This document shows, in pieces, positions 10,046-60,638 of a stretch of 64,000 bases of DNA. The notes beneath the pieces were generated by a model. The model saw nothing but the letters and a program-made list of their open reading frames with translations. It had not been told where the DNA came from and ran no database searches. Origin of the DNA: Bdellovibrionota bacterium (lineage in GTDB: Bacteria > Bdellovibrionota > FAC87 > UBA2466 > JACKAF01); the NCBI GenBank assembly GCA_041751875.1, contig JBGSIC010000029.1, positions 2,598 to 66,597 of the forward strand. Reading direction: 5' to 3'. The position numbers and the translations under genes are program-made. Numbering within the stretch: the stretch's first letter is position 1; every line of letters starts with the position of its first letter.

Positions 10046-10747
10046 ATGATTATCAAAGCCTACGCCCGAAGCGTGATTGGTAGCCGCGAAAAGAACCAAG
10101 ATTCTTATTTGATTGAAGATGATCGCCAGCTATACGCGATTGCCGATGGTGTGGGAGGAGGCGTGGGCGGTGAAGTCGCATCGTCGATGGCTGTCGAGGG
10201 CATAAAGGAACTTGCCCTTGATCACACAAAATTGAAAGAAGCGCTCGAAACCTGTCAGGAACGTATTTTGAGAAAGGCGCTAAAAGAGCATGGTGCCCCC
10301 GTGATGGGAACAACACTCACGGTGGTTTGTGTCGAAGGTAATCGGCTTCATCTTGTGCATGCAGGCGACTCTCGATGCTATTTATTCCGAGGAACACACC
10401 TCGAACTGAAAACGGAGGACCACGAGTTTTTTGATGATTCGTTGGGGGCCACCGTTCTAGGCTCGTATTTGGGAATTCCCACGGACGAGCATACGCTGCA
10501 AATTTTGCAGGACACCTTTGAAATTCTTCCCGGTGATCGCGTGCTTCTTTGCACCGATGGGCTCTACCGGCAAATCGAAGAGCCTCGTTTAGTTGAACTC
10601 ATTAAAACCTATGAGCATAACCCGGAAGAGCTTCTCGAAAAAATGACACAAGAAGCGGCCGAGCATCCACACTCCGATAACATTTCCATCGTTTATATTG
10701 AAGCTAAGGCCAAGGACGCAGGCACAAAAACCCCTACTCAAGAGTAA
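10046..10747 (+). CDS. PP2C-family Ser/Thr protein phosphatase
   Basis: Motifs SREKNQDSY, AIADGVGG, HAGDSRCY and LCTDGL in the PPM-family order. Confidence 0.8.
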   Translation: MIIKAYARSVIGSREKNQDSYLIEDDRQLYAIADGVGGGVGGEVASSMAVEGIKELALDHTKLKEALETCQERILRKALKEHGAPVMGTTLTVVCVEGNRLHLVHAGDSRCYLFRGTHLELKTEDHEFFDDSLGATVLGSYLGIPTDEHTLQILQDTFEILPGDRVLLCTDGLYRQIEEPRLVELIKTYEHNPEELLEKMTQEAAEHPHSDNISIVYIEAKAKDAGTKTPTQE

Positions 10748-10790
10748 CTCTTGTCTTCGGCTCTGGTCGGGATCTATAGTTTTGACCTAT

Positions 10791-14540: not shown

Positions 14541-14765
14541 GTGAGGGTCCTTCTGGAGGATTTATACTTTAGGATGACGGGACTTACAAAACTTTTTGGT
14601 GCTGCCTTCCTTGATCCCCTTCCTTGGAGCATGGGATAATAAGGACTGATCCAGCGGGATCCCAAAGAGCCGCTTTTCCAGCTCCTTGCCGCGTCTCGGG
14701 CAACAGCCTCTTTACGACGCCCCTTTTCAATTCAAATTCAGATTCTGCATCTCTAGGAGCCTCTC

Positions 14766-17031: not shown

Positions 17032-18147
17032 TTGCGCAATCGGCTGAGCCTGACTTCACGCTACTTATGGAAGTATCTCTTTGGCGAGGTACTCGTAACG
17101 TTCATGCTCGGAACGGTGGTGTTTTTGGGGCTGATGTGGGCCCTACAATCTTTAAAATTCTTCGAGTTTGTTGTTCTTCAACAAGTTTCAATTCTCAATA
17201 TTTTCAAGCTCAGCTATTACCTTGCGCAGTCGGCAATCACGATTGCCATTCCCGTCGCTTTTTTGTTTGCGATTATTTGGGGAATATCCCGCGCCAAGAG
17301 CGAAGGGGAGATCCTCGCCCTTGAAGCTTCCGGCGTAAGTGCGCTGAGCATTTATCTCCCTATTTTGTTGATGTCGTTGGCCCTCACCGGGCTTTGTATT
17401 TGGCTGTCTTTATTCATTGTTCCCAACGGGCAAAACCGTTTGGAAATTATGTTGCGGCAGATGGGCGTAAAAACCGTTATCAGTGGCTTTAAAACGGGAA
17501 CGTTTACAGAAGGTTTTGCTGGCATGATTTTTTATGCCGAAGAGGCAGAAAACGATCAAATCAAAAGAGTCTTTATCTACGACAAACGTGAGCCTAACGC
17601 GCACTTTGCGATCACCGCGCAGAGTGCAAGCCTTAAGAAGAAAAAGGATGAAGACGCGATAACCTTGCGATTAGCCGATGGTTCAATTCATGTGATTCCC
17701 AAAGGGCAGCAAGAATTTCAGCAGAAGATTGATTTTGATATCTATGACGTAAACCTCGATATCAACTCAGGCAAAGGAATTGGAGGCTGGCATACTGTAC
17801 CGGAATTTACGTACCCGATGCTCATCGCCAAACGTAAAGAAACGGAAGACAGCGTTTATCGCATCAAACTAGAACTAGAACTTCACCGTCGTTTTGCGAT
17901 GGCCTTTGCGTGCGTGGTGTTTGGTGCGTTGGGATATTTCATCGGACTCAAAAGTAAAAAGGGCATGGGCAGTTCTTCGGTCGTGTTGTGCCTGCTCATC
18001 GCAGTGATTTACTGGCTCGGTTACCTTTGGGCGACCGCCGCTTCGCTCAGCGGAAGCATTCCCCCGTGGATTGGGGTCTGGATTCCCAACTTCGTTTTCT
18101 TACTGATTCCCCTGTATTTTGCCCGAAAATTCCGCCTCGCGCCCTAG
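17032..18147 (+). CDS. LptF/LptG-family LPS export permease (YjgP/YjgQ)
   Basis: Six-TM topology with a large periplasmic loop. The N-terminus LTSRYLWKYLFGEVL is typical. Confidence 0.7.
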   Translation: MRNRLSLTSRYLWKYLFGEVLVTFMLGTVVFLGLMWALQSLKFFEFVVLQQVSILNIFKLSYYLAQSAITIAIPVAFLFAIIWGISRAKSEGEILALEASGVSALSIYLPILLMSLALTGLCIWLSLFIVPNGQNRLEIMLRQMGVKTVISGFKTGTFTEGFAGMIFYAEEAENDQIKRVFIYDKREPNAHFAITAQSASLKKKKDEDAITLRLADGSIHVIPKGQQEFQQKIDFDIYDVNLDINSGKGIGGWHTVPEFTYPMLIAKRKETEDSVYRIKLELELHRRFAMAFACVVFGALGYFIGLKSKKGMGSSSVVLCLLIAVIYWLGYLWATAASLSGSIPPWIGVWIPNFVFLLIPLYFARKFRLAP

Positions 18148-44830: not shown

Positions 44831-46480
44831 ATGACTTCAGAATTGAAATTCCTTCCGCTGGGCGGACTCGGCGAAATCGGCATCAATTGCCTGGTCATCG
44901 AATGCGACGGGCAAATAGTCTTGCTCGACTGCGGCATTCAGTTTCCTGATGCGTCTCACCCCGGTGTGGAAATTTTCCTCCCCGACCTTACCTACGTGGT
45001 GGAACGCTTTGACCGTCTCAAAGGCGTGGTGGTTACCCACGGGCATGAAGACCACATTGGAGCCATTCCCTATCTCGCACGCCATGGAAAGATTGATGTT
45101 TATTGTACGCAGTTTCCCCGTGGGCTGATTACTCACAAGCTTAGCGAGCACCGGGAGGCCAAAGAGGTCACTTTCCACAATATTGAGCCCGAGAGACCCT
45201 TTAAAGTCGGTCCTTTTGAGTTCCACCCGACGTCAGTTCAACATTCCATCATTGAGGCACTAGGCTTCGGCGTTCGCACTCCTGCCGGACTTTTTGTCCA
45301 CTCAGGGGATTTTAAGCACGACCCGCGTCCGGTGAACGGAAAAGTCATTGGATTGGAGCAGTTTGAGAAGTGGGGCAAGGAAGGGGTGCATCTACTTTTT
45401 GCCGACAGTACCAACGCGGAGAAGGCCGGCCATACGATTTCCGAGCACGAAATCACCGATTCCTTTGAAGGGATGCTCAGTCAGCAGAAATCACGCGTGT
45501 TTATCGCTCTATTTGCGTCCAACGTGCGTCGGGTAGGAAACCTCATGCATCTTGCTCACCGACTGGGCAAGAAGGTCGTTCTGGTCGGTAGAAGCATGCA
45601 TTCTTATACGCGCCTTGCTCACCAACAGAAGTCGCTACAAATTCCTGAAAACACTTTGATTTTGGCGGAGAGTAGTCATGAGTATCCAGATGATCAGGTC
45701 ATCTTTTTAGCGACCGGAAGTCAGGCCGAACCTCAATCTGCGCTATTACGTTTAGCAGAAGGTTCGCACCGGGAAATCAAACTCAAAAAAGGCGACCTCA
45801 TTATGATGTCGAGCCGGTTCATACCTGGAAATGAGAAGGCCATCTCCAACATGATCAATGAGCTGTACCGACTGGGTGCCGAGGTCATGTACGAGTCAAT
45901 TCACCAAATCCATGTTTCCGGACATGGTTTTGCGGACGAGTTACAGATGCTGCACCGTGCCTGCAAACCGAAGTTTTTTGTTCCTGTTCATGGGGAATAC
46001 CGCCATTTAGCCAAGCACGCCAACCTGGCCGTGCAGTCCGGAGTGGCTCCTGAAAATGTCTTTGTTATTGAGGACGGACAAAGTGTCGTTACGGACGGGA
46101 CCAAGCTACGCCTGGGAGAGAAGGTCGATCTCAAGCCTATTCCTGTGGTTCAGGGGGCGCTCATGGAGCAAAGACCCCTCGTTTTTACGCAGCGCAGGGC
46201 ACTTGCCAAGGCAGGGATTGTATTTAGCGTCGTGATGCGCGATGCCAAGAACAAGCAACTGCTCGGTGAGCCTGTGGTGCGCAGTGTAGGGCTACTTTTT
46301 AAACGCGAAAAAGAATTGGTAGAAGCCGAGACAGAGGCAGCGAAATTTCTCAGCAATATCTACATCAAGAACATGAAAGACCCCGAAATTGCGGAAGTCT
46401 TTCGGCGCGAGCTTCGTCGCTTTTTTCGCGACCGAGCCTGCTATAAGCCCACCGTTATCTCCCAAGTATTCGACATCTAA
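44831..46480 (+). CDS. rnj: Ribonuclease J (metallo-beta-lactamase/beta-CASP RNase)
   Basis: The HGHEDHIG motif, a beta-CASP region and the typical C-terminal domain. Internal ATG at 44831 chosen. Confidence 0.85.
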   Translation: MTSELKFLPLGGLGEIGINCLVIECDGQIVLLDCGIQFPDASHPGVEIFLPDLTYVVERFDRLKGVVVTHGHEDHIGAIPYLARHGKIDVYCTQFPRGLITHKLSEHREAKEVTFHNIEPERPFKVGPFEFHPTSVQHSIIEALGFGVRTPAGLFVHSGDFKHDPRPVNGKVIGLEQFEKWGKEGVHLLFADSTNAEKAGHTISEHEITDSFEGMLSQQKSRVFIALFASNVRRVGNLMHLAHRLGKKVVLVGRSMHSYTRLAHQQKSLQIPENTLILAESSHEYPDDQVIFLATGSQAEPQSALLRLAEGSHREIKLKKGDLIMMSSRFIPGNEKAISNMINELYRLGAEVMYESIHQIHVSGHGFADELQMLHRACKPKFFVPVHGEYRHLAKHANLAVQSGVAPENVFVIEDGQSVVTDGTKLRLGEKVDLKPIPVVQGALMEQRPLVFTQRRALAKAGIVFSVVMRDAKNKQLLGEPVVRSVGLLFKREKELVEAETEAAKFLSNIYIKNMKDPEIAEVFRRELRRFFRDRACYKPTVISQVFDI

Positions 46481-46545
46481 GGATTACGGGGCGCGTTGGT
46501 TAAAGCCACGCCCGATTCTGTCCGATAAGAAAAGGGGAGCCACTC

Positions 46546-47586
46546 TTGTCAGTCAAAGCCTTAAAAGAAGACGAAGTACCTATTGAGCCGCAAAAGTATT
46601 TTAAGGTGCGCATCAATTCCATTCCGCTCGAAGTTCCCCTGCAGTTCGACATCCTTTTATATGTCAGTGGAAGACTGACCCTCTTTCGCAAGCCCGGTGA
46701 TGTGCTAACGCGTGACCGGCTGTCTGGTCTTAAAAAGCACGGTGCCAAAGAGTTTTTGATTCCCGACGATCAACGTGGCCTCTACCTGCAAACACTAAAA
46801 GATAGTATTGCCGATCCGGGAACAGACAAAAAAGACAAAGGGCGCATTATCAAAGAAAGTGCGTTCATTCACGTAGAGGATCTTTTCACCAAGCAAGACA
46901 TTCGTCCTGTGGTGGAAACTTCGAAACAGCTAGTTGAAGAAATGGTTTCGTTTGTGACTGAAGATGTCGATGCGGCGGTTTCTCTTATGCGTTTGTCAGT
47001 GCATGACTACTATACGTACAATCATTGCGTCGATGTTGCGGTCTACGCAATCACACTAGCCAAGAAAATTTTTGGTGATGATAAGAATTTACTTTTCCAC
47101 GCAGGACTTGGTGGACTTCTACATGACGTCGGCAAGCGACGCATTTCCAAAGAAATTATTAACAAGATGGGTCCGTTGACCGGCCCCGAATGGCAAGAAG
47201 TCAAAAACCACCCGAAGTACGGTGTAGATTTTTTAAAGAGTGTTAATTCGATTCCGGTAGAAGCCAAACGAGTCGTACATGAGCACCACGAAAACTTCGA
47301 TGGTACTGGTTACCCCCAAGGATTAAAGGAAGAGGAAATTTCTAAACTCAGCCGCATTGTGATGATCGCAGATGTGTTCGATGCTCTGACAACTGACCGT
47401 TCCTACCACAAGGCGATTAATCCCAGTGAAGCATTGAAAACCATGTATTCGATGCAACCGGGGAAGTTTGACCCCAATCTTTTCAAAACGTTTAATAAGA
47501 ATTTCGAAAAGAAGGGCCCAATCCAATTGCCCAAAGATTTTGATCCCTGCCAGACCCGCAAGATGATCAAGCCCACCGAGGAATAG
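46546..47586 (+). CDS. HD-GYP domain c-di-GMP phosphodiesterase-like protein
   Basis: HDVGK and HHENFDGTGYP motifs. The N-terminal roughly 120 aa are of unknown (possibly PilZ-like) function. Confidence 0.8.
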   Translation: MSVKALKEDEVPIEPQKYFKVRINSIPLEVPLQFDILLYVSGRLTLFRKPGDVLTRDRLSGLKKHGAKEFLIPDDQRGLYLQTLKDSIADPGTDKKDKGRIIKESAFIHVEDLFTKQDIRPVVETSKQLVEEMVSFVTEDVDAAVSLMRLSVHDYYTYNHCVDVAVYAITLAKKIFGDDKNLLFHAGLGGLLHDVGKRRISKEIINKMGPLTGPEWQEVKNHPKYGVDFLKSVNSIPVEAKRVVHEHHENFDGTGYPQGLKEEEISKLSRIVMIADVFDALTTDRSYHKAINPSEALKTMYSMQPGKFDPNLFKTFNKNFEKKGPIQLPKDFDPCQTRKMIKPTEE

Positions 47587-47702
47587 CCCACCAAGGCTCA
47601 ACTCGACAGATCTGACCCAGGCGCTTCCCGCCTATAGCAACCCTTCTAATCATGGTGGAAAATTTGGGTAAATCCTTATAAGGTGTGCCTAGTTCCATTT
47701 GG

Positions 47703-47779
47703 GGGCGGATAGCTCAGTTGGTTAGAGCGACGCGTTTACACCGCGTAGGTCCGGGGTTCGAGCCCCTGTCCGCCCACCA
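47703..47779 (+). tRNA. tRNA-Val (anticodon TAC)
   Basis: Cloverleaf with acceptor stem GGGCGGA/TCCGCCC. D-arm AGCTCAGTTGGTTAGAGC, anticodon loop TTTACAC, T-arm GGTTCGAGCCC, and a 3' ACCA. Confidence 0.85.
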
Positions 47780-47854
47780 TTTTTAGCAAGTTCGAGCAGG
47801 GTCTCGGTCTCGCTCAATCTGGTCGTGGCAGGTAAATAGGTTTTGCTCGCGAGG

Positions 47855-47878
47855 TCGAGCCCCTGTCCGCCCACCATT
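47855..47878 (+). repeat. Exact 24-nt direct repeat of the tRNA-Val 3' end (att-like)
   Basis: tcgagcccctgtccgcccaccatt occurs at 47758-47781 inside and just past the tRNA, and again at 47855-47878. Confidence 0.6.
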
Positions 47879-47925
47879 CTCCCTTTGAGCGCCCTGCAAT
47901 TGGGCTTTGGCAGTCTTGTTCTTTG

Positions 47926-49182
47926 TTAAGTTTTAGCCTGTTGCCACCTTCGTGAAAGATGGCAGAGTGTTTTTCCCCATAAGGCGAAACCCGCGCGAAT
48001 ACACGCAACGAGGCGGTAAGGAATAAATTTTTCCTTAAACACAACCGTCGAGAGGGTTTTGGTTACACGTGAATTGCCTATCGCTTGAGCCACGCTCAAC
48101 AATTCTTCCGCGAAGCTCGTCTCGCTAAGCCCCTTCCGAGGACCAAAATAGTAAGTGGATGGCGGTATTTTACTGAGATCAAGGGGGACCGGGAATGTGC
48201 GGTATTTTTTCAGGCTACCGAGGGTTTCCAAAGCGAGCATGGTGCGAAGGCATTTTGCGCAACGCCCACAGTTGTTGTCTTGGGAGGTGTTTTCCCAGCA
48301 GACTCGAAGCGATTGGTATGTGACTTCCCACTGGCTAATGACCCTTAGCTTTTCTATTCGAGAGAGGTTGGAGCCGTGGTGGAAAACCTCCAAGTGGGGA
48401 CGGGAAAGAAGATGATCGGTCATGGGATTGGAGCCAAGCGGAGGCACAATCAGAGAGTAGCGATTGGTTGAACCGATAAAGACACGCCGAATGCCCCTGC
48501 TCATAAGAAGAGCGATCGTGGAAAGAAACGCACCGTGGACCATTAACCAGTCACATTTGGGGTCTAGAAAATGGCGAAGATTAGTGCGTATCGGAATCAT
48601 CTCAACGCCCATGTGCCCAAGAAGGTCCGCGTACTTGGCGCTGAGGCGGTTAAAAACAAATTCCTCCGAAAGGGGGATGTCAAACCCGTGGAGGAAAAAA
48701 CAATACTGGATCTGAAAGGGGGGCAGCGGTTCGTTGTGGGGAAGGTGGCTGTGGAGCGTGTAGAAGGAGTCCACGCCACCGGAGAAAAAACTCGCTGCTC
48801 GTTGATTTATTTCGAGAGAGTTGCCTTGATCAGCGTACGGATTTGCTGAAATATTTATGGTTTCGAAATCCGAGGGCCGCCAAAATTTGAAGTATTTTTG
48901 ATATTCTTTTGCGCCGTAAAGGAAGCGCTCACTCACGCTGCCATCCACCAGAAGGTCTTTCTTTGTGGCCATCGCAGGGAAAAGCAAAGCCGAGGCAAGC
49001 CAGTCCTCCGAGTCCGATAAAAAGCTTTCATATTTTTTTGGCACGGAAAAGTAGAGTTCGTCGGGGAACCCCGTTTCGCTGGTAAGAATTTTCGAGCTCA
49101 GCTTGATCGTTTCGCCAATGGTTTGCTTTTTAGGGTAGGAAGCGTTGAGGGTGTCAGTAATCAATTGGCTCCACCGTTCCAA
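47926..49182 (-). CDS. PP-loop (SGGxDS) ATP pyrophosphatase-family protein with N-terminal extension and C-terminal CxxCxxC
   Basis: FFSGGVDSF PP-loop near residue 150 and CGRCAKC near the C-terminus. This resembles QueC or N-acetyl-sugar amidotransferase-type enzymes. Confidence 0.5.
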   Translation of the reverse strand: MERWSQLITDTLNASYPKKQTIGETIKLSSKILTSETGFPDELYFSVPKKYESFLSDSEDWLASALLFPAMATKKDLLVDGSVSERFLYGAKEYQKYFKFWRPSDFETINISANPYADQGNSLEINQRAASFFSGGVDSFYTLHSHLPHNEPLPPFQIQYCFFLHGFDIPLSEEFVFNRLSAKYADLLGHMGVEMIPIRTNLRHFLDPKCDWLMVHGAFLSTIALLMSRGIRRVFIGSTNRYSLIVPPLGSNPMTDHLLSRPHLEVFHHGSNLSRIEKLRVISQWEVTYQSLRVCWENTSQDNNCGRCAKCLRTMLALETLGSLKKYRTFPVPLDLSKIPPSTYYFGPRKGLSETSFAEELLSVAQAIGNSRVTKTLSTVVFKEKFIPYRLVACIRAGFALWGKTLCHLSRRWQQAKT

Positions 49183-50048
49183 GAAATTTTGAGGAAGTGA
49201 GGTTTAAGAGAATAGTGATAAACACTATCGTTCTTAAAATAGTTATTCGGATGAAAATAAACCCGCTTGTTTAACAGGGTGGCGGCAATGCAAATGTGAA
49301 GGCGATCGGTATGGATGGCGGAGAACTGATTCAAACATTTTAGTAGATTAGCGCTCACCCTGCCGACGATCTCAGGTGTCCACCCCGGCTCGTAAAGATG
49401 GAAGGAAAGGTCCACGTTGCGGCTGGGTAGTGCCTTGCGTAGACTCTCCTTGTCCTGTCTAAAAGCAAAGAGTTCCTCGTTTCCGCACCACCGCCATAAA
49501 AGTAACTTCATTTTTGTTAGGTTGATGTGAGCAGACCGCACGAAGGTCGAAAACGGACTTTGCTGCGAAGCGTGGCTTGGGGGCCGTTGGAGTACTTTTT
49601 TCGTGTCGAGAGCGAACACTAGGTCGGGATGCAGGTGCACTCGACTCCTATTTGCAAGCTTTGTGACGTAGGCGAATGAAACAGGCTCTCGGCAAAACAC
49701 CTCAACGCGTTCATCAAAGGAGCGTATGAGCGTTTCATGCCCTAAGATAGTTTGAGGTAGCAGAATGAGTCTGCGTACTTTTGGAAGGGCCATGCGAATG
49801 AAGTTAGCGGCGTCATTATACAGAGGAACCAAGTTTCCTCCCCCGCCGTAAACAACGATTTTGTTTGTCAGGTCGGTGTGAGGAAAGATTAGCTGATAGG
49901 AAATAGAGTACTGATTAAATAGCTGATAGGTGGCTTCGGCAATTAACTGATCCCCGGCCCACCCAGGGTTCGGGAAATAGTAAACCAGCTCGTCGCTAAG
50001 GCTTTGTAGACATTGACTGAGAGAAGAGAGTGTCTTCCACGTCTTCAT
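49161..50048 (-). CDS. Hypothetical protein, possibly polysaccharide pyruvyl-transferase-like
   Basis: The N-terminal NPGWAGD segment resembles the GN.GD motif of pyruvyl transferases. This is weak. Confidence 0.35.
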   Translation of the reverse strand: MKTWKTLSSLSQCLQSLSDELVYYFPNPGWAGDQLIAEATYQLFNQYSISYQLIFPHTDLTNKIVVYGGGGNLVPLYNDAANFIRMALPKVRRLILLPQTILGHETLIRSFDERVEVFCREPVSFAYVTKLANRSRVHLHPDLVFALDTKKVLQRPPSHASQQSPFSTFVRSAHINLTKMKLLLWRWCGNEELFAFRQDKESLRKALPSRNVDLSFHLYEPGWTPEIVGRVSANLLKCLNQFSAIHTDRLHICIAATLLNKRVYFHPNNYFKNDSVYHYSLKPHFLKISWNGGAN

Positions 50049-51037
50049 ATCTGAGTAGCTGACCGCTTAGATCGGAGGCTGGAAAAAACGGGTCCGAAAG
50101 CCGGCCAATCGATTAGCACAAAAGCCATTAGTACATAGGGAGTGAAAGTGACGTCTAAAAGCCAATCGCTGACAACGTGAAAGACTATTGCGTTACATAG
50201 AAAGAAGTTTCGAAGCCACGGGCCGAAAAGAGCTAGTGGAAACATTAGCTGGATTCCCAGCGAAGCTAGGGCGAGAAGGATTGTAAGAGGGCGATAAGAG
50301 GCGAGGGTGCGGCCGGCCGCTGACGCCGGAGTACTGTAAATATAGTGAGTCAAGCCGAAGCCATCTTTCCAAGTTTCTTCTGGCTCGTTACTGCCAAATA
50401 GCTGGTGCGTGGAGTCTGTTGAGCGACTCAGATAGAAAGTTAAAGTATCGCCTCTAAGCCAAGCCTTGCCACCGTGGCGGATTTTGGCTACCCCAGCGTT
50501 GAAATAGAAGGAACAGATCAGGCAAAGAATAAGAACCGTTCCCCAGCGTGGGACGGGCTCTCCTTTGAGGGCAGTGAGTACGGGCTTTTTCTGGCGTCGC
50601 GCTCGTAGTAGGGAGTCAATCGACCAAGAATCTACTCCGGGGGCGAAAACGAGTGCACAAAGAACAAGGAACACTAGTGCGCTTACGTGATGGAAGGCGC
50701 CCCATGAGGAGAGCAGGCATGAGACGTAGCCGAAGCAGAGTGTTACCCCTAGTAAGGAGAGGCGCGTCACGATACCCAGTAACGCAAAGAGCGCGCACAG
50801 AAAAAAGAAAGCCGTAAACAGCCTAAGGAGTTCAGGCGTCAACGGCGCGTGAAGACCCAACCGCACCAGTATCGACCCGGGATCCATCAAAAAAGAATCC
50901 GCGCCATCATAATGCGCAAGGACGCCGAGATCCCTTCGGATTCGGGGGAGAATGACCAGCGCTACTATCACCATGCGAAGATACGGGGCAGGGTTCCAAA
51001 CTTGTTTTGAAAAGAGAAAAGCCGTCACTGTTTGCAT
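50045..51037 (-). CDS. Polytopic integral membrane protein (HTTM-like?), function unknown
   Basis: About eight predicted TM helices. There is a 4-nt overlap with the upstream gene. Confidence 0.4.
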   Translation of the reverse strand: MQTVTAFLFSKQVWNPAPYLRMVIVALVILPRIRRDLGVLAHYDGADSFLMDPGSILVRLGLHAPLTPELLRLFTAFFFLCALFALLGIVTRLSLLGVTLCFGYVSCLLSSWGAFHHVSALVFLVLCALVFAPGVDSWSIDSLLRARRQKKPVLTALKGEPVPRWGTVLILCLICSFYFNAGVAKIRHGGKAWLRGDTLTFYLSRSTDSTHQLFGSNEPEETWKDGFGLTHYIYSTPASAAGRTLASYRPLTILLALASLGIQLMFPLALFGPWLRNFFLCNAIVFHVVSDWLLDVTFTPYVLMAFVLIDWPAFGPVFSSLRSKRSATQI

Positions 51038-51576
51038 TACAAGTTCGATTCCCAGGTGTGTGTGAAGCGTTGTTCTTCAGGAGAGTAAAAGCCAACGGTA
51101 CGGCGTTTCATTGGCCGTTCTTTCCCGTCAACCGAGAGAATGGAGACCCGCAGTTTGACACCAGGCTCAACCCAAGAGGGTCGCTTCAAATGGAGCTCCT
51201 TAAAAATCGATCTAAAGTACACACTTAAACGTTCACGGAATAAGCTAGGGTTGTCGTTTACGATTGCGGAGTGCGGTGACCGGCCAAGGGCGCCGTAAAC
51301 ATGGAGAAAAAAGTGGCGCATGGTTGGCATCTCCCTCCAGTAGAGGTCGTGGGCACGAAGCTCTCGGTCAGTTCCGTCGGCACTCTGTAACAGCCATTCA
51401 AAGCGATATAGCCTGTCTGTGGGCGAGGCAAACATGGGTGCAGATGTAAACGGCCAGACTTCACCGGCGGTGAAAAGGACCATGATTTGAGGTGACAAAA
51501 GTGCCAAAAACAGAAAATAAACGCCGAAACGCTGATGGCGAGTCACAGTAGGCAGAGGCACAATCTTTTTCACCAT
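51037..51576 (-). CDS. Hypothetical membrane-anchored protein
   Basis: N-terminal TM segment. Its start abuts the downstream membrane-protein gene, suggesting translational coupling. Confidence 0.35.
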   Translation of the reverse strand: MVKKIVPLPTVTRHQRFGVYFLFLALLSPQIMVLFTAGEVWPFTSAPMFASPTDRLYRFEWLLQSADGTDRELRAHDLYWREMPTMRHFFLHVYGALGRSPHSAIVNDNPSLFRERLSVYFRSIFKELHLKRPSWVEPGVKLRVSILSVDGKERPMKRRTVGFYSPEEQRFTHTWESNL

Positions 51577-51618
51577 TTTAGTCTAAAATAGAGCGAACAA
51601 GAAAGGATGGGCGTTGCG

Positions 51619-52578
51619 TCAGGAGGATGGGGATGATTTTTTATCCCCTAGGAGTCTTTCGGCAAGAATGTGCATTAAGGGTTTATCTTTTTCGAAATGC
51701 AAAACCGACTTGTTGGGAGGGAGCCTCCTTAGAAAGTGTCCTGCCGCTGAGGGATCCTCTAACATCTTCTGTTTGTCCGCCGGCAGTTTGGCGTAAAAAT
51801 CAAGAAAGGAGATAGTGAGATTACATTTTTGAGCGAGCAAGCAAAAGAAGAAGTCCTCAGGAAGGTCTGAAAGATAGTGTTCCGTACTCCAAGCCGCTAA
51901 GAGTGCGGTGTGGGCCGTGGGAGAGGACAGTATACGCCGTATCGAATTTGTTCGTAAAAAGTAACATCCCCCCTGAAAATATTTGTGGCCATGTCCAAAA
52001 TGAGTTTGTCCTACTATTTGAGAAGCACAAGAAGCGGCGACTTCAAAAATGTTTGAGTTTAGAAATAAGGTATCGCTATCCGTTTTTACAAGTAGGTCGT
52101 TACTTTTCATTTCTGAATAAATTTCTTTAAAAGCTTGCCGCGTACTAACAATAACGTTGGAACCGCCCCACGAAAAAGGCAGAGGTGTCCGGGTAAGGGT
52201 CGAGCCGGAAGGGCAACGCAGTAAAAGTTGCCTAACTTCATCGGCATTTATGGGATCCTTCCTGTCTTCGAAGAGGCGGACCGAGTAAGCAAAAGGAAGG
52301 TCCAGAGCCAGAAGACTGTCGACCGAAGCCTTTAAGTACCGGAAATGTGCGCCGCAGGTAAAATAGGCGATGAAAAAATGGGGCCTTTCGGAGAAAACTT
52401 CCGGCTTTGGCATCTGAAAGGGAGCCCAAAGCAGAGACTTAAAATCGAGGAGTAACAATCGCAAGCCATGTAAAGGCGTCAGGAGCGCCAGATGGAGAAG
52501 AGACCATAAATTTCTATGTCGTAGAGGCGGGGTCAACAAGGTCTCTTTGAAGCACGATTCCACTGTTTTTAGAGGCAT
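51619..52578 (-). CDS. Hypothetical protein (possible DxD glycosyltransferase-like)
   Basis: A TDSDTLF segment in a Rossmann-like context. This is weak. Confidence 0.3.
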   Translation of the reverse strand: MPLKTVESCFKETLLTPPLRHRNLWSLLHLALLTPLHGLRLLLLDFKSLLWAPFQMPKPEVFSERPHFFIAYFTCGAHFRYLKASVDSLLALDLPFAYSVRLFEDRKDPINADEVRQLLLRCPSGSTLTRTPLPFSWGGSNVIVSTRQAFKEIYSEMKSNDLLVKTDSDTLFLNSNIFEVAASCASQIVGQTHFGHGHKYFQGGCYFLRTNSIRRILSSPTAHTALLAAWSTEHYLSDLPEDFFFCLLAQKCNLTISFLDFYAKLPADKQKMLEDPSAAGHFLRRLPPNKSVLHFEKDKPLMHILAERLLGDKKSSPSS

Positions 52579-52781
52579 CGCGTTGCTCTATAAGTAAGGG
52601 TACTGCCTGACTGATTCTACCGTTTGCTTCGCGCCGTCAAGGTAATAGGTGAAACTGCCTCTCACCTTGGCGATCTCAACGGGAAAGGCGCCTGCGGGAT
52701 TGGTAGGAGACTGTTTACTTAAGGTTTGCTATCGATTCGCATTCGAAACCTTGCTAGACTCTCCTTCAGCCGGGAATCCCA

Positions 52782-54074
52782 TTGCGCCATTTATCTGCTC
52801 AATTTTATTTTATTTTTTTCCTTGGGTTTGCTTCTCAAGCTCTAGGGGTCGGCCTTTTAGTTGGTAAAACACCCGGTGCGTTTCATCGCTCCTCGGTCCA
52901 GGTGGTCTATGTAAAAGAGGGCGACCGTAACACCCTTACTTTCTACAGCGACTTTCGCGGGGAAAACGGATCATTCGTCATTCTGCTGCCGTTTCCTTTC
53001 GCTGTACCAGAAGAAAGCATAGCCTTGCTCGAGCACGCACCGATGGAACAGCTCGAAGCCTTTTCGGCCCCCATTTTATTTGAACAGATGGATCCGGATC
53101 CTTGTTTAGAAGAAAATTTAGCCCCCAAGGCGGCGGGTGGCCCTGTCAAAGCTCACCTTCTGGGCAGTAGTCCGCAACGTCGTACGCGGGGAAGTTACAA
53201 AGCAGTAGCTTTAAGTGCGCCCCAATCTCAAAAAATACAGGATTGGTTGCAAGAAGAAGGGTATCAACCTGCCCCCGAAAGCGTGCCTTGGTTGAAGGAA
53301 CAAGCTAGAAAAAATCATTTCATCGCGATTAAAGTGGAACTCAAGGAACACAGCCGACTGGCGTATCAGTACCTACGGCCTATCCAAGTAACATTTACCG
53401 GCGCTGAATTTAGTTTACCTTTGGAACTGGGACCCGCGCCCCAGGGAGAAGATCAAGACCTTTATCTCTACGTGATCACAGACCAAGGGCAAGTAGCTCC
53501 CGCTAATTACGCGATTACGCAGTTACCCTCGAACAAAGATATTCCTGCTTACATCAAGTATCGATTTGAAGATTTTTACCGGGAAGTATTTTTACAAGCG
53601 AGTCGGAAAAATAAAGGTGCGTTTCTCGAATACGCGGGAAGTGCGTTGCGTTGTGAGAATTGTAATGAGGATACGTTAACGCTTGAATCGCTTTCGGCAT
53701 TGGGCGTGCAGTGGCTATCGGGCTTAAAAGACAAGAAGGCAATTGCTGCTGCAAAAGAAGCATACCTTTCGCGTTACCATCTTCGGGGACGCAAGGAATC
53801 GCTTCCGCAGAAGATCACTTTTCAAGCCGTGGCGGATTTGCCGCCATTTCAGGAAGTGTTTTTGGTACGCCACGCCTGGATGGGTTCGTCGCGCTCTTGC
53901 GCCCAGGCGAATGCTTACGCCAACACGCTCAGTGCCCGCCGCGAAAGCGAAGCGCGCACGCTAGCTAGTTTGACGGGATGGAGCATTGAGCGAATTTTGA
54001 ACAACATGACGCCTGCTCAGAAAGACCAAAAGAAGCATTGGTACGAGAGACTCTTCGATGAAGAAAAAAAATGA
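52782..54074 (+). CDS. Secreted hypothetical protein
   Basis: Signal peptide, 430 aa. The 3' end overlaps the proC start by 17 nt. Confidence 0.45.
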   Translation: MRHLSAQFYFIFFLGFASQALGVGLLVGKTPGAFHRSSVQVVYVKEGDRNTLTFYSDFRGENGSFVILLPFPFAVPEESIALLEHAPMEQLEAFSAPILFEQMDPDPCLEENLAPKAAGGPVKAHLLGSSPQRRTRGSYKAVALSAPQSQKIQDWLQEEGYQPAPESVPWLKEQARKNHFIAIKVELKEHSRLAYQYLRPIQVTFTGAEFSLPLELGPAPQGEDQDLYLYVITDQGQVAPANYAITQLPSNKDIPAYIKYRFEDFYREVFLQASRKNKGAFLEYAGSALRCENCNEDTLTLESLSALGVQWLSGLKDKKAIAAAKEAYLSRYHLRGRKESLPQKITFQAVADLPPFQEVFLVRHAWMGSSRSCAQANAYANTLSARRESEARTLASLTGWSIERILNNMTPAQKDQKKHWYERLFDEEKK

Positions 54075-54876
54075 AAAAATTGGAATTTTAGGCTTAGGCA
54101 GAATGGGACGCTGTCTTGTGCAAGGCATGTTAGAAACAGGCCAAGTGCAGAAAGAGGACCTGCTTTTCACCACCAGAAAGAAAGAGAATGCTACCCTTGC
54201 GACCAAAGAGGTCGGAATAAAAGCCTGTGCGAGTAACAAAGAGCTAGTGAAGAACTGTTCGGTGATTATTTTGGCGGTGAAACCACAGAATCTGGACGAT
54301 TTGTTAAAAGACGTGGGCCAGGACTTTAAAGCGAATCAAACGATCATTTCGATTGTTGCCAGTGTGACAACCAAAGCAATTGAATCGCGAATTCCAAAGA
54401 ATGTGGCTGTCATTCGTGCCATGCCCAACACCCCAGCTTTCGTCCGCTGTGCCATGACGGCGATGTGTCCTGGCGCCGCAGCGGGGAAAGCTCACCAAGA
54501 CATCGCAGAGAAAATTTTCAGTTCGGTGGGTAGGGTGGTGCAGACTGAAGAGCGTCATATGGACGCGGTCACGGGCCTGAGCGGTTGCGGCCCCGCTTAT
54601 ATCTATTTAGTGCTTGAGGCAATGACCGAAGGCGGCATCAAGGTGGGCCTTCCCCGAGAGGTCGCCCTAGAACTATCCGCCCAAACCGTACTGGGGGCGG
54701 CAAAAATGCTTCAGGTGACCGGTCGCCATCCTTCCTCTTTACGCGACGAAGTGACCACCCCAGCCGGGTGTACGATTGATGGCCTTGTGGAATTGGAAGA
54801 AGGGAAGTTGCGGGTCACATTGATGAAAGCCGTTGTTAAAGCGACTGAGCGTGCACACGCGCTTTCCAGTCTCTAG
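54058..54876 (+). CDS. proC: Pyrroline-5-carboxylate reductase
   Basis: N-terminal NADP-binding IGILGLGRMG and C-terminal ProC dimerisation-domain motifs. Confidence 0.85.
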   Translation: MKKKNEKIGILGLGRMGRCLVQGMLETGQVQKEDLLFTTRKKENATLATKEVGIKACASNKELVKNCSVIILAVKPQNLDDLLKDVGQDFKANQTIISIVASVTTKAIESRIPKNVAVIRAMPNTPAFVRCAMTAMCPGAAAGKAHQDIAEKIFSSVGRVVQTEERHMDAVTGLSGCGPAYIYLVLEAMTEGGIKVGLPREVALELSAQTVLGAAKMLQVTGRHPSSLRDEVTTPAGCTIDGLVELEEGKLRVTLMKAVVKATERAHALSSL

Positions 54877-55013: not shown

Positions 55014-56306
55014 ATGGGTGATTCCGCAAAGTTAAATGTAGATGGTAAAGAGTTCGAATTCCCGCTTGTTGAAGGAACCGAAAAAGAGCGGGGTATGGAC
55101 ATTACCAGCCTGCGGTCGAAAACGGGCCTAATCACTTTAGATACCGGCTATATGAACACCGGGTCTTGTTCCAGCGCCATTACCTTTCTGGATGGTGAGA
55201 AGGGGATTCTTCGCTACCGCGGCATACCGATTGAAGTCTTGGCGGAAAAATCAAATTTTGTGGAAGTCAGCTACCTCCTTATTTACGGCGAACTTCCCAC
55301 GGAGTCGCAGCTTAAATCGTTTACCAACAACCTGACTCGTCACACGATGCTCCATGAGGATATGAAGCGCTTCTTCGACGGATTCCCGCGCGATGCGCAT
55401 CCGATGGCGACGCTATCGGCGGCCGTAAACACACTTTCCACTTTTTACCAGGAAGAAACTGCTGGGCTCCAAGGCCGCAGTCTGGAGAATTCCATTTATA
55501 GACTTCTTGGGAAGTTACCGACCATTGCGGCGTTCTCCTACAAGAAATCGATCGGGCAACCGTTCATCTATCCTACGAATGCACTAAGCTATTGCGGCAA
55601 CTTTTTGAAAATGATGTTTGGCGTCCCGGCTGAGGAGTACGAAGTCAATCCGGTGATGACCAATGCGCTACGCCTTCTGTTTTTGCTTCATGCTGATCAC
55701 GAGCAGAATTGCAGTACGTCCACCGTGCGTCTGGTGGGAAGCGCCGGGGCGAACCTTTACGCCTCAGTTTCCGCCGGTATCTCGGCCCTTTGGGGACATC
55801 TCCATGGTGGGGCCAATCAGCGCGTTGTGGAAATGCTTCAAAAGATTAAAAAAGAAGGTATCGGCGCCTCCCAGTTCCTGGAACGAGTGAAGAAGAAAGA
55901 CGAAGGTTCGCGTTTGATGGGCTTCGGACACCGAGTTTACAAAAACTTCGATCCACGGGCGAGCATTATTAAGAAAGCTGCGGATGAAGTGCTGACCAAC
56001 CTGGGTGTGAAAGATCCCTTGCTCGATATCGCCAAGGTGCTCGAAGAAGCAGCGCTTAAAGATGAATATTTCATCGAGCGGAAACTTTATCCCAACGTCG
56101 ATTTCTACTCGGGGATTATCTACCGAGCGATGGGAATTCCGGTAACCATGTTCACCGTGATGTTCGCAATCGGAAGATTGCCGGGCTGGATCGCCCAGTG
56201 GAAAGAGATGATTGGGGATCCTGAGAACAAGATCGGTCGCCCACGCCAGATTTACACGGGATTTAACGAACGCGCTTACACTCCGATTGAGAAGCGAACA
56301 AAATAG
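55014..56306 (+). CDS. gltA: Citrate synthase
   Basis: Active-site His in GFGHRVYK and the LHADHE motif. About 430 aa, type II. Confidence 0.9.
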   Translation: MGDSAKLNVDGKEFEFPLVEGTEKERGMDITSLRSKTGLITLDTGYMNTGSCSSAITFLDGEKGILRYRGIPIEVLAEKSNFVEVSYLLIYGELPTESQLKSFTNNLTRHTMLHEDMKRFFDGFPRDAHPMATLSAAVNTLSTFYQEETAGLQGRSLENSIYRLLGKLPTIAAFSYKKSIGQPFIYPTNALSYCGNFLKMMFGVPAEEYEVNPVMTNALRLLFLLHADHEQNCSTSTVRLVGSAGANLYASVSAGISALWGHLHGGANQRVVEMLQKIKKEGIGASQFLERVKKKDEGSRLMGFGHRVYKNFDPRASIIKKAADEVLTNLGVKDPLLDIAKVLEEAALKDEYFIERKLYPNVDFYSGIIYRAMGIPVTMFTVMFAIGRLPGWIAQWKEMIGDPENKIGRPRQIYTGFNERAYTPIEKRTK

Positions 56307-57509: not shown

Positions 57510-59498
57510 GTGGCAAGCAGCAAAATAACGACTTCAAGTACGGCCGAGTATTTCGCGAAGAACCTTCAGCAGGTTGGTTTTTCTTCGTCCACAAAGGCCG
57601 TTCTGACAACTCTGAAAGAAGCAGTCGATAACTCACTCGACGCTTGTGAAGACGCAGGCATTCTTCCTGAAATTAAAATTCTGATCGAAAAAAAGGGCGA
57701 GGGGACAGGTAAGAACACCGATCTCATTCGAGTAAAGATTGAAGACAATGGTCCGGGTTTAGATCTCGAAGACCTACCGAAGGTTTTTGGTGAATATTTG
57801 GCCTCTTCCAAATTTGGTCGAGGGCGTTGTTCGCGCGGGCAGCAAGGGATTGGTATTTCCGCGGCGACTACCTGGGCCCAGCTGACTTCCGCCAAGGGTG
57901 CCAGCGTGATTACCAAAACGAAAAAAATGCGCGCGGCGATCTCTGCGGTGGTGAACGTTGATATCAAGCAAAACAAAGGCATCCTGAAGAACAAAGAAAG
58001 TGTGAATTGGGATCGGCCGCATGGCCTTAGCGTTGAATTTTTGATCGACGGAAGAATGCAGCTTAATGGGGAGGGCGGGTTACTCACCTATATTAACGGT
58101 ACCGCATTAGTAAACCCGCATCTGGATCTCGAATATAAAATTGGCGAAGACGCCAAGCAAAAAATTAAGCGAGTCGCGGACCTAGTGCCCAACATCCCTG
58201 AAGCGACGATGCCCCACCCTCATACGATGAAGTTGGGTGAATTTTTGCATCACTCTCACCTATTCGGAAAAGTTGAGCTTCGCAAGTGGTTGAAAAAAGG
58301 TTTCACGCGTATCTCGGATGGAGTGATTGATGAGATCGTTAAGAACGGACTCAGCAAAGGGTTTCTCACGCGCCCTGTAAACCAGCTCTCCGAAGGCGAC
58401 ATGAAGCAGGTTTACCAGGCCGTTCAGAAAACGGAGCTCATGGCTCCTAGTACGCGGTCGGTAATGATTATCGGCGAACATGCGCTTGCGATGAGCATCA
58501 AGCGCATGGGCGAAATTGATTTCTTCTCGGTCGTTACCCGCAAACCCAAGATCTGTGATTCGAAACCCGTGGCTGTTGAAGTCGCCATCGCGCGATTCTT
58601 GGATCGCTCGGGCTCTTCGGTGCCGGATGAAGAGGTCGGTCCCGTGACCGTTTTGCGTTTCGCCAATCGGGTACCGCTGCAGTTTGATAAGTCGGCTTGT
58701 GCGATTGTTCAAGCGATTGAAACCGTGAACTGGCGCAGCTATGGCCTTTCTCAAGCCAAAAGCAGTTTGCCGAGTGGACCCTACGTCATCGCGGTGAGCG
58801 TGGTCTCACCTTTTATTAAGTTTAAAAACGCCTCCAAAGAAACCATTGATGCGAGTGATGAACTTGTAGAGGAAATCCGTCGTACGCTGATGCAGGCGGG
58901 ACAGAAGCTTTCACGCCACATTAATAAAGAAAATCGTGAAGCCGATCTAGAGAAAAAATTACAGCACATTGAACAGTTCTGTCCGATTCTAGTGGAATGC
59001 TTGTGCCGTATTACAGAAGCTCCCGCGAAAAGAAAGAAAAAGGCTACCGAAGGCATCATGAAGCTTCTGGGTCGCGACGTGAATAAAGCCGAAGAAGAAT
59101 TACAAGCGGCTAAAGAGGGCGTGAACAAGGTCGTCACAAAGCAGAAAGAAAAATTCCAGAAAGCCATTGCGAAGAATAAGAAAGCCTCGGGTGAGGACTC
59201 TGAGCCGGAAGAAGATGTCCGACCTAACGCTGAGGACGTTGTCACGCCTGAAGAGGTGAATGAGGAAATTGAGCCTGAACTAGAGGCCGCGGAAGAAGCC
59301 GAAAGCGAAACGGAAAAGCCCAAAAAGGGCGGAAAGACCAAGAAGGGCAAGACGGCAGCACCTGCCAAAGAGGCAAGTGCGAAGAAAAAGGCGGCGCCCA
59401 AAGCGGAAAAAAAGGCGAAGCCTAGCGAAAAGAAGGCCAAAAAGCCCAAGGGTAAAGCAAAAGACGACGAAGAAGAAGTCGACGAGCTGGAGGTTTAA
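57510..59498 (+). CDS. top6B: Type IIB DNA topoisomerase (topo VI) subunit B, GHKL ATPase, with Lys/Ala/Glu-rich C-terminal tail
   Basis: Bergerat-fold N-box EAVDNSLDA, G1 EDNGPGL and the Top6B-specific G2 SRGQQGIGISAA. H2TH/transducer-length body. The C-terminal roughly 110 aa are KKAxPKAEKKAK-type repeats. Confidence 0.8.
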   Translation: MASSKITTSSTAEYFAKNLQQVGFSSSTKAVLTTLKEAVDNSLDACEDAGILPEIKILIEKKGEGTGKNTDLIRVKIEDNGPGLDLEDLPKVFGEYLASSKFGRGRCSRGQQGIGISAATTWAQLTSAKGASVITKTKKMRAAISAVVNVDIKQNKGILKNKESVNWDRPHGLSVEFLIDGRMQLNGEGGLLTYINGTALVNPHLDLEYKIGEDAKQKIKRVADLVPNIPEATMPHPHTMKLGEFLHHSHLFGKVELRKWLKKGFTRISDGVIDEIVKNGLSKGFLTRPVNQLSEGDMKQVYQAVQKTELMAPSTRSVMIIGEHALAMSIKRMGEIDFFSVVTRKPKICDSKPVAVEVAIARFLDRSGSSVPDEEVGPVTVLRFANRVPLQFDKSACAIVQAIETVNWRSYGLSQAKSSLPSGPYVIAVSVVSPFIKFKNASKETIDASDELVEEIRRTLMQAGQKLSRHINKENREADLEKKLQHIEQFCPILVECLCRITEAPAKRKKKATEGIMKLLGRDVNKAEEELQAAKEGVNKVVTKQKEKFQKAIAKNKKASGEDSEPEEDVRPNAEDVVTPEEVNEEIEPELEAAEEAESETEKPKKGGKTKKGKTAAPAKEASAKKKAAPKAEKKAKPSEKKAKKPKGKAKDDEEEVDELEV

Positions 59499-60638
59499 AT
59501 GACAGAAACAGATATCCCAAAAGTGAGTAAGGCTCTTTGTCAGCGCTTATTAACCGACCTGGAGAACGCACGACGCCCGGTAATGGAAGCGATCAAGTGC
59601 TCTCTCGATAACGCTATCTATTCGCCAAAGGTCGGCTACCTCACGCCGGGAGATAAGAGAGTACGTACCGAACTTAACGTCAGTTCTGTGCAGAAAATGT
59701 CGCGTGCCATTTTCCTCTTGGAGATACTTCTGCGCAACGTAGACACGGGTGCGGTAAACACGAAACGCGAACTCTATTACATCGCAAAAGGTGAAGTAAA
59801 ACACTCGCCCGATCTCAAGCCTTTGGATTTCGCTTCGCAGGAAGAAAGCGATTCCATTATTGATTTCATTTGCGAAATGCTCGTTTGTTACCGAGAAGAA
59901 CTAAACTGTTTTGCGAACGATCGCGGCGGCCAAACCTATTCAGAAGCGTTGGTGGTTACCGAGACCTTGCCGGATGGGAGCAAGGCTCAAGTAGATCTTG
60001 GCTCTTTGGGAACGACACCCTTCCAGCCAAAGAACCGACCCCAAAGCTTGAAGCTTAAAGCCAAGAAGAAAATCGATTTCTGCTTAGTTGTGGAATCGGA
60101 AGGTACGGCTAACACCTTTGTCGCCAATGGGTTCTGTCGGCGTAACAAGGCTATCTTAGTGGGTGCACAAGGGGTTCCTAGTAACGCGGTTCGTGGATGG
60201 GTGAAGCTCATTCAAGAAGAACTTAGCGTTCCTATTTATTTCTTTGGTGATCTGGACGCCTATACTCTTCAAAATATTTATCGCACCCTGAAGGCGGGAT
60301 CAGCAGCCAGTTTGATACGCAATTCGGATTTCTCTGCTCCTAAAGTCCATTTTCTCGGTGTGCTCCCCGAAGACATCAAAAAGTATGATTTGCATGACTA
60401 CGAAGTAAGAGAAGCTGACTTGCAGGAAGCTCGTGCTCTTAAGAAGGCCCGAGACGCCCTAGAGAACGATCCCTTTTTCAAAGATCCTAAAAATAAGGAT
60501 CTCGCCAACATTCTCAAGTGGCTCTTGAAGAACAAGCGCCGTTGCGAGCAACAGGCATTCTTCATGGTTGATCCGCGCGATCCGACTCGCCCGGAGAAAA
60601 TCATCATCGATAAGATCAGAAGAAAGAATTACGTCTGA
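59499..60638 (+). CDS. top6A: Type IIB DNA topoisomerase (topo VI) subunit A / Spo11-like (winged-helix with catalytic Tyr + Toprim)
   Basis: RELYYIAKGE catalytic-Tyr context. Toprim Glu in VVESEGT and DxD in YFFGDLDAYT. The start codon abuts the top6B stop (TAAATG). Confidence 0.8.
   Translation: MTETDIPKVSKALCQRLLTDLENARRPVMEAIKCSLDNAIYSPKVGYLTPGDKRVRTELNVSSVQKMSRAIFLLEILLRNVDTGAVNTKRELYYIAKGEVKHSPDLKPLDFASQEESDSIIDFICEMLVCYREELNCFANDRGGQTYSEALVVTETLPDGSKAQVDLGSLGTTPFQPKNRPQSLKLKAKKKIDFCLVVESEGTANTFVANGFCRRNKAILVGAQGVPSNAVRGWVKLIQEELSVPIYFFGDLDAYTLQNIYRTLKAGSAASLIRNSDFSAPKVHFLGVLPEDIKKYDLHDYEVREADLQEARALKKARDALENDPFFKDPKNKDLANILKWLLKNKRRCEQQAFFMVDPRDPTRPEKIIIDKIRRKNYV

Follow-up and report, generated by a model that had tools for sequence, protein, structure and literature searches.

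A repeated tRNA-Val 3' end in an uncultured Bdellovibrionota bacterium, a probable remnant of serial integrations at a tRNA hotspot

How does the 3' end of a tRNA gene come to stand twice, letter for letter, in front of the same gene cluster? The question is raised by a tRNA-Val(TAC) gene in a stretch of 64,000 nt (the window; positions 2,598 to 66,597 of contig JBGSIC010000029.1, assembly GCA_041751875.1) from an uncultured Bdellovibrionota bacterium that is without close sequenced relative. An initial annotation had interpreted the repeat as the footprint of site-specific integration at an attachment (att) site, an interpretation that is right in kind but incomplete, as it missed a third copy in the spacer and the inversion of the whole tRNA module. 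We consider it reasonably probable that the locus is a decayed array of att sites from serial site-specific integrations, and that the adjacent five-gene cluster A–E represents an older islet beyond it.

The tRNA-Val(TAC) gene is the sole tRNA that ARAGORN finds in the window, and no second one is detected there by Rfam either. Its last 22 nt and the two flanking nucleotides TT compose the 24-mer TCGAGCCCCTGTCCGCCCACCATT, of which the 64 kb contain two exact copies that lie 97 nt apart from start to start and enclose a spacer of 73 nt without any open reading frame (ORF; Table 1). No further match with up to three mismatches is present on either strand of the window, only chance-level matches occur beyond the locus if up to seven mismatches are allowed, and 100 dinucleotide shuffles returned none, in agreement with a chance expectation of none. 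The exact recurrence of the tRNA end 97 bp downstream, as initially annotated, is hence confirmed. The identity of both copies breaks off exactly at either end of the 24-mer. Its left edge is the second T of the T-loop TTCGAGC (GGGGT/TCGAGCCCC), which is position 56 in the ARAGORN numbering and about 55 in the standard one, and from there the repeat covers the 3' strand of the T-stem, the 3' strand of the acceptor stem, the discriminator base, CCA and 2 nt of flank. The continuation of the identity past CCA into the flank, by 2 nt in the window and by 4 nt at a related locus (L009), indicates that the copy was made from DNA and not from the mature tRNA. Copy 2 is a 3' fragment located downstream of tRNA-Val on the same strand, which are the right side and strand for an attL/attR pair; copy 1 would accordingly be the attL core and copy 2 the attR core of a vanished element.

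Table 1. Coordinates of the tRNA-Val locus in the window and of tRNA fragments in the window and at related loci
Sequence	Feature	Position	Strand	Length	Spacer or interval	Remarks
Window	HD-GYP-type gene	46546-47586	+			conserved left anchor of the hotspot
Window	tRNA-Val(TAC), canonical, CCA encoded	47703-47779	+			ARAGORN; Rfam RF00005, 69.8 bits, full length
Window	exact repeat copy 1, TCGAGCCCCTGTCCGCCCACCATT	47758-47781	+	24 nt		T-loop through CCA plus TT
Window	linker TTTAGCAA	47782-47789	+	8 nt		copy 1 to decayed copy
Window	decayed third copy GTTCGAGCAGGGTCTCGGTCTCGCTCAATCTGGTCGTG	47790-47827	+			alignment to L003/L005-type tRNA-Val end plus flank
Window	remainder of spacer	47828-47854	+	27 nt		without tRNA relic, without database match
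Window	exact repeat copy 2, TCGAGCCCCTGTCCGCCCACCATT, displaced tRNA 3' fragment	47855-47878	+	24 nt	73 nt	downstream of tRNA-Val, from position 56; also in Logan contig L002
Window	stretch from copy 2 to A–E cluster	47879-47925		47 nt
Window	five-gene cluster A–E	47926-52578	−			outside exact-repeat interval, on tRNA 3' side
Window	DUF2330 gene and proC	52782-54876	+			conserved right anchor
Window	citrate synthase gene	55014-56306				after proC
L009	tRNA-Val	12158-12234	−
L009	3' fragment of tRNA-Val			25 nt	161 nt	from position 57, 4 nt past CCA
L008	tRNA-Gly(GCC)	17375-17448	−
L008	3' fragment of tRNA-Gly	17136-17153		18 nt	~220 nt	from position 58
L010	tRNA-Gln(CTG)	10405-10478
L010	anticodon-arm fragment of tRNA-Gln	10430-10450 and 13221-13241		21 nt	2.77 kb
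L011	5' fragment of tRNA-Val, upstream	14668-14686	−	19 nt	49 nt	positions 1-19
L018	5' fragment of tRNA-Val, upstream	10739-10758		20 nt	93 nt	positions 0-19

The trivial explanation of such a repeat would be an artefact of assembly, or a chimera joined at the repeated tRNA, which is hardly credible here. Two Logan contigs of run SRR28170465 are base-identical to the window, namely L001 to positions 45431-47727 and L002 to positions 47741-50742. L001 runs from the HD-GYP-type gene into the 5' end of the tRNA, and L002 continues without a single mismatch from the 3' half of the tRNA through the spacer, copy 2 and three genes further on, so that an independent assembly contains both copies and both junctions. 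Moreover, the two flanks of the tRNA represent one conserved syntenic locus in at least 12 relatives. What speaks for an artefact is the break of the Logan graph within the D/anticodon region of the tRNA (47727/47741), but the 24-nt repeat is shorter than the assembler k-mer, and the break is likely explained by tRNA positions 1-50, which are identical in other Bdellovibrionota of the community (e.g., L018). The same break could also conceal population heterogeneity at the locus.

The spacer between the exact copies contains a third, decayed one. In the closest relatives of the window, L003 and L005 (72% over MetK, RNase J and the HD-GYP-type protein), CCA is directly followed by CTGGTCGTG/A, and the same 9-mer is present inside the window's spacer. 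The L003 sequence from the T-loop to CCA plus 9 nt of flank (33 nt) aligns end-to-end with the spacer at a score of 29, which is reached in about 1 of 1000 shuffles (z 4.1-4.8) and exceeds the maximum of 24 across 5080 real 75-nt segments of the window. The acceptor strand of the decayed copy is of the L003 type (CTCGC.CA) and not of the window type (TCCGCCCA), and under strict scoring the spacer has no similarity to the window's own tRNA. Such a decayed end of a relative's type, together with its flank, was probably brought along by an element from its previous host or left by an earlier accretion. Two other origins of the repeat were tried and rejected. A 97-bp tandem duplication is not reflected in the similarity between the spacer and the 73 nt after copy 2 (score 16, shuffle mean 16.3), and a decayed second tRNA-Val gene is not reflected in that between the 27 nt before copy 2 and tRNA positions 1-55 (score 10, null mean 11.2). 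A family-wide scan for decayed copies elsewhere retrieved none that survive correction for multiple testing.

The comparison with related genomes provides the context of the locus. A scan of genome collections with the HD-GYP-type protein recovered 78 loci, nearly all of them from metagenome-assembled genomes (MAGs) of Bdellovibrionota, with a best identity of 70%; a search among 5.8 billion proteins likewise found the window's own protein (NCBI, Logan) and a next best match of 70%. The window proteins were mapped onto 21 related loci (L003-L023) in which the tRNAs were located, and 13 of these loci have a tRNA-Val. Their backbone reads ClpX–810-aa protein–metK(−)–ORF(−)–rnj–HD–[variable]–tRNA-Val(TAC)(−)–(DUF2330)–proC–gltA. 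The window has the corresponding genes for ClpP, ClpX, the 810-aa ORF, MetK, RNase J and the HD-GYP-type protein upstream, and those for DUF2330, proC, citrate synthase and topoisomerase VI-like proteins downstream of its variable stretch. Among the 13 relatives with tRNA-Val, variable DNA is confined to the gap between the HD gene and the tRNA 3' end in 12, the exception being L018 with variable DNA on both sides of the tRNA. The length of the variable stretch ranges from 36 nt in L015, which is effectively empty, to 7.6 kb in L003-L005, and its content changes by clade, comprising a TetR regulator with a 1211-aa helicase and a flavin monooxygenase, DUF285/TIG and beta-propeller repeat proteins, a DegT aminotransferase, an epimerase, RPE65 and a polysaccharide deacetylase. 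The locus is thus a tRNA-3' insertion hotspot.

In the window, the tRNA lies on the plus strand and adjoins the HD gene, which has the same orientation, and the variable cluster is located between the tRNA 3' end and the DUF2330 gene. The module of tRNA-Val and its 3' variable DNA (47587-52781) is consequently inverted with respect to the backbone of 12 of the 13 relatives (compared: L003-L017, L023); the tRNA of L018 is likewise on the plus strand. The position of the variable DNA on the 3' side even in the flipped module supports the conclusion that the tRNA 3' end is targeted, and not the intergenic gap. The flipped module is not flanked by significant inverted repeats. A candidate relic of the ancestral tRNA beside the DUF2330 gene (11 of 12 positions matching at 52579-52590, minus strand) was rejected, as its shuffle fraction is 0.3 and about 30 such matches per window occur by chance, and the comparison of the tRNA-upstream regions across loci (z ≤ 2.1) is too weak to tell whether the promoter moved with the inversion. 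Further downstream, at 57510-60638, two neighboring genes of the window encode a protein of 662 aa and one resembling topoisomerase VI subunit A/Spo11 (TP6A_N and Toprim domains). Both are conserved in the related Bdellovibrionota loci, at 68-85% identity, although topoisomerases of type IIB are not common among bacteria.

The conserved backbone starts at about 52.7 kb, and any island must end by this point. A third 24-mer, which the initial annotation had proposed to seek as the far boundary of an island, is absent from the window. The first minus-strand gene of the A–E cluster, correctly placed right behind the repeat, ends at 47926 and thus 47 nt past copy 2, so that A–E lies outside and not inside the interval between the two exact copies; the DUF2330 gene neighbors the cluster on the opposite strand. 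The products of A–E are a 418-aa protein, a polysaccharide pyruvyl transferase, an HTTM-domain protein, a 179-aa protein and a 319-aa protein, and no family match in Pfam or NCBIfam was found for the 418-aa, the 179-aa and the 319-aa protein. None of the 21 related loci has A–E homologues at this site. The suggested examination of its composition gave a divided result: the GC content is unremarkable, whereas codon usage and tetranucleotides are mildly atypical, with a pooled synonymous-codon distance of 0.099 (maximum of 0.098 for the other contiguous five-gene sets in the window) and a tetranucleotide distance in the top 2% of 4.7-kb segments. The 418-aa protein has homologues of no more than 40% identity in scattered lineages, and the few of them with a source name belong to Chloroflexota, bacteria of the candidate phyla radiation (Paceibacterota) and archaea (Woesearchaeota). 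This fits an older, partly ameliorated and horizontally acquired islet. An ancient pseudo-tRNA fragment, which the initial annotation had associated with relatives that share both the duplication and its genes and with a cluster free of any compositional shift, is not what the comparison suggests, as the closest relatives lack both and the cluster is mildly atypical.

The window is not the only place where a tRNA end is repeated. In our scan of 22 tRNAs in the window and 80 related loci for exact partial copies of at least 16 nt nearby, six tRNAs have such a copy, with a chance expectation of about none (Table 1). The side and strand of all six agree with those expected of integration, each fragment matches the tRNA variant of its own species, and the copies are 100% identical. 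The left edges of the three independent 3' fragments (window, L009, L008) occupy successive positions of the T-loop, about 55-57 in the standard numbering, among some 75 that were possible. The two independent 5' fragments of L011 and L018 share their end point in the D-loop, position 19, and the sequences behind them are homologous (CCCAAGGGAGCGAAGCGACCG / CCCCAGGGAGCGAAAGCGACCG), of which CCC(A/C)AGGGAGCGAA(A)GCGACCG is conserved. L011 and L018 belong to different clades with 64% identity, and sister species of both lack the insert; the same junction therefore has two or more independent origins, an argument for a site-specific mechanism.

Several details accompany these cases. The L009 repeat CGACCCCTGTTGCGCCTACCATTTA is located at 11967-11991 and 12154-12178 (minus strand), just before a gene for an NAD-dependent epimerase. 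Its sister L006 (88% identity) has the same epimerase, no duplicate and a tRNA gene without encoded CCA, and it was discarded as an empty-site comparator since the intergenic DNA is too diverged. The spacer of L008 opens with a long palindrome that takes in the 3' end of the tRNA as well as a hairpin resembling a terminator. In L010, the distal copy is followed by a decayed T-arm-like stretch. Between the copies lie a methyltransferase gene and small ORFs, among them one of 170 aa and two of 113 aa; Pfam detected no integrase in the two that were scanned, the methyltransferase and the 170-aa ORF. In appearance, this interval is a decayed island of small size that belongs to the anticodon-centred class. 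The promoter-like block of the L011 tRNA (TAGAGTACCAAT...GGCAATGAT) stands upstream of the fragment and not directly before the gene. Within 1.3 Mb of loci, only four sites have the motif AGGGAGCGAA(A)G / GGGRRCGAAAGYCG, which is absent from the window; these sites are L009 ~12074, L012 ~14025 and L011 ~14653, all on the minus strand, and L018 ~10763. Each of them lies within about 170 nt of a tRNA-Val and on the strand of the latter, and the motif may represent an arm or end sequence of a tRNA-Val-targeting element family.

The succession of events that we favor would have begun with the integration of the islet A–E at the 3' end of tRNA-Val, its far att copy having since decayed. A later element of the tyrosine-integrase type would then have crossed over in the T-loop, thereby supplying a new segment from the T-loop to CCA (copy 1) and displacing the previous 3' end downstream (copy 2). 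In this serial model, copy 2 would once have served the A–E islet as attL core, and it does directly abut A–E, as the model predicts. The later element would subsequently have been deleted nearly completely, and among the 73 nt left of it would be an eroded tRNA 3' end of greater age, together with its L003-like native flank. The three copies with their positions, side and strand, the hotspot, the parallel cases and the lack of mobility genes are observations, whereas the part played by a tyrosine integrase and the succession itself are inferred. Today the locus is probably inert, but the extra core could still be usable as a landing site.

The att-site interpretation is supported by the geometry of the repeat, the hotspot, the parallel cases and the third copy; no integrase, attP-bearing element or polymorphism between occupied and empty sites was found. 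Several observations weigh against it. No integrase was detected by Pfam in 30 ORFs of the window (179-569 aa; the 810-aa ORF is not among them), which corroborates the initial annotation in this respect, and no integrase or other mobility gene was found in ten variable regions scanned at the hotspot. Viral contigs and JGI metagenome contigs contain 0 exact matches of TCGAGCCCCTGTCCGCCCACCATT, and a BLAST search with 47740-47930 against phages and plasmids matched the tRNA part only, without any carrier of the 24-mer or the spacer. No strain-level relative that would show an empty or filled site was retrieved via the flanking proteins. The position of the decayed copy between both exact ones is an awkward order for simple serial integration, the edge of the repeat is located 1-3 bases inside the T-loop and not at its border, and the spacers of the short-range cases are very small (49-220 nt).

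Other searches for a source were equally negative in their respective collections. A degenerate pattern covering the window and L003 types had six matches in the contig collections, all of them unrelated tRNAs or chance, and the cores of L009 and L008 had 0 matches in viral contigs. Neither a cognate element or attP for the window site nor a parent integrative and conjugative element (ICE), integrative and mobilizable element (IME) or prophage was found in the phage, plasmid, viral and metagenome collections. One of the BLAST matches is a tRNA-Val segment beside the integrase gene of Paracoccus phage vB_PbeS_Pben1. Its similarity of 82% is due to the conservation of the tRNA, and Pben1 is not the cognate element, but its attP has the same part of tRNA-Val as core and illustrates that this part serves as attP in known phages.

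The lack of integrases at the hotspot, which extends over eleven species, and the tiny spacers are also what an integrase-free local duplication would leave, either by illegitimate recombination or template switching in repair, or by homology-facilitated illegitimate recombination, in which the conserved tRNA gene anchors incoming DNA of a relative and the other end of this DNA is joined illegitimately. By either route, part of the tRNA would become duplicated and short filler DNA would remain. That the spacer holds a tRNA 3' end plus flank from a related lineage is as expected of imported DNA of a relative, and cargo for sugar modification or the cell surface without mobility genes resembles the polysaccharide region of Halobacteriovorax (PMC5760749). 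We nevertheless regard such an origin as rather unlikely, although it is the most serious competitor of serial integration. It accounts neither for the consecutive T-loop starts of the 3' fragments nor for the common D-loop end of the 5' fragments and the conserved sequence behind it, and all six fragments obey the side and strand of site-specific integration. Moreover, a single anchored event cannot yield two copies of the recipient type around one of the donor type, and the structure is not a tandem duplication.

The small size of the intervals, 49-220 nt in five of the six cases and none with an integrase gene or pseudogene, raises a further possibility, namely that the 97 bp are not a deletion remnant but a miniature att-flanked element in its complete form, the integrase counterpart of a miniature inverted-repeat transposable element (MITE) or minimally cis-mobilizable, that was moved or created in one step by an integrase acting in trans. 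The perfect identity of the fragment copies suggests recent events, and the inserts of L011 and L018 have a conserved arm-like start in common. Yet the spacers of window, L009 and L008 are mutually unrelated in sequence, so that they are not copies of one element, and no second copy of the 73-nt spacer was found in the window, 86 loci and the phage and plasmid collections. The prevalence of short intervals is itself subject to a detection bias, since the loci extend only about 10 kb and reveal intervals below about 8-10 kb; MAG assemblies, in addition, tend to break at large variable islands. Circles of less than 200 bp, moreover, recombine poorly. We consider a miniature element improbable.

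Copy 2 is perfect (24/24) while the copy next to it is decayed, which would be understandable if it were a selected functional element, for example a trailer that pairs with the 5' acceptor strand of the tRNA and thereby modulates the processing of the precursor, or a decoy or secondary attB by which the tRNA gene is protected. Co-transcription is possible, as no terminator is predicted between tRNA and copy 2, and the fragments match the tRNA variants of their own species. The scan for promoters and terminators revealed nothing. Selection of this kind is very unlikely all the same, because a 3' fragment is present at only two of the 14 tRNA-Val loci of the family and missing from the closest relatives, and because the spacers differ in length as well as in sequence. 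The folding of spacer and fragment is not unusually stable compared with shuffles (z = -1.5), and Rfam reports nothing except tRNAs in the window and the related loci.

Serial integration would place the locus among features that are known in principle. Work by Reiter from 1989 and by Williams from 2002 reportedly described islands and prophages in tRNA genes that are bounded by the regenerated tRNA gene and the displaced 3' fragment. In the Islander collection, which filters its candidates by side, orientation, length and presence of an integrase, 3760 3' fragments compare with 159 5' fragments, and attP sites of the T-stem region (1836) and anticodon-centred ones (2083) are the two main classes (PMC4383910). 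The window resembles these islands in its intact tRNA with a cognate, exact 3' fragment downstream in the proper orientation, in an identity that extends from the T-stem/loop region to past the 3' end, and in its hypervariable, family-wide hotspot; several fragment copies at one locus are reminiscent of tandem island arrays. It departs from them in an interval of 73 nt instead of kilobases, without integrase and cargo (the 4.7-kb A–E cluster being outside) and with a decayed copy between the exact ones. According to van der Gulik et al. 2023 (PMC9897764), tRNA gene fragments are pervasive leftovers of integration in prokaryotic genomes; those cases are likewise partial, non-functional 3' segments beside a canonical gene and are attributed to incoming DNA, but their inserts measure about 9-23 kb and up to 121 kb, whereas the window's fragment flanks 73 nt. 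Related predators possess integrase-bearing hotspots with degraded integrase genes, and the variable regions with polysaccharide genes in Halobacteriovorax are devoid of mobility genes (PMC5760749).

The repeat also invites comparison with another class of remnants. Cis-mobilizable elements (CIMEs) are att-flanked, integrase-less derivatives of ICEs and IMEs at the streptococcal tRNA-Lys and fda hotspots. The window has in common with them that attL/attR-like direct repeats flank an interval without recombination or transfer genes and that an accretion-type array adjoins cargo, here the A–E islet. CIMEs are larger and gene-bearing, unlike the interval of the window, of which almost nothing is retained. 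The kind of feature is thus already known, a tRNA-fragment scar or CIME-like remnant in an accretion array, and it is unusual only in its small size, its three copies and the inversion of the whole tRNA module.

The sole aspect that could exceed the ordinary is the recurrence of micro-inserts at tRNAs of Bdellovibrionota. We consider it a long shot that att-flanked inserts of 49-220 nt beside tRNAs are the recurrent product of a dedicated site-specific process in this group, which may be reflected in the junctions within the T-loop (3' type) or the D-loop (5' type) and in the arm sequence conserved in two clades. Its products could be miniature integrase-dependent elements mobilized in trans or abortive integrations in one step, and not slowly eroded islands. 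If true, att cores would pile up as landing pads and drive accretion at tRNA-Val without resident integrases, which would bear on how integrase-less gene islets build up beside tRNA genes. As it stands, the locus is a scar of a well-understood kind. It would be dropped by fragment-based island finders, being too short and without an integrase, despite the at least two to three recombination events recorded in it. Its value lies in identifying tRNA-Val(TAC) as a hotspot of integration within a clade of predatory bacteria that is poorly sampled, and in pointing to the A–E cluster, which encodes a pyruvyl transferase, an HTTM-domain protein and three further proteins whose function is unknown, as flexible DNA of horizontal origin.

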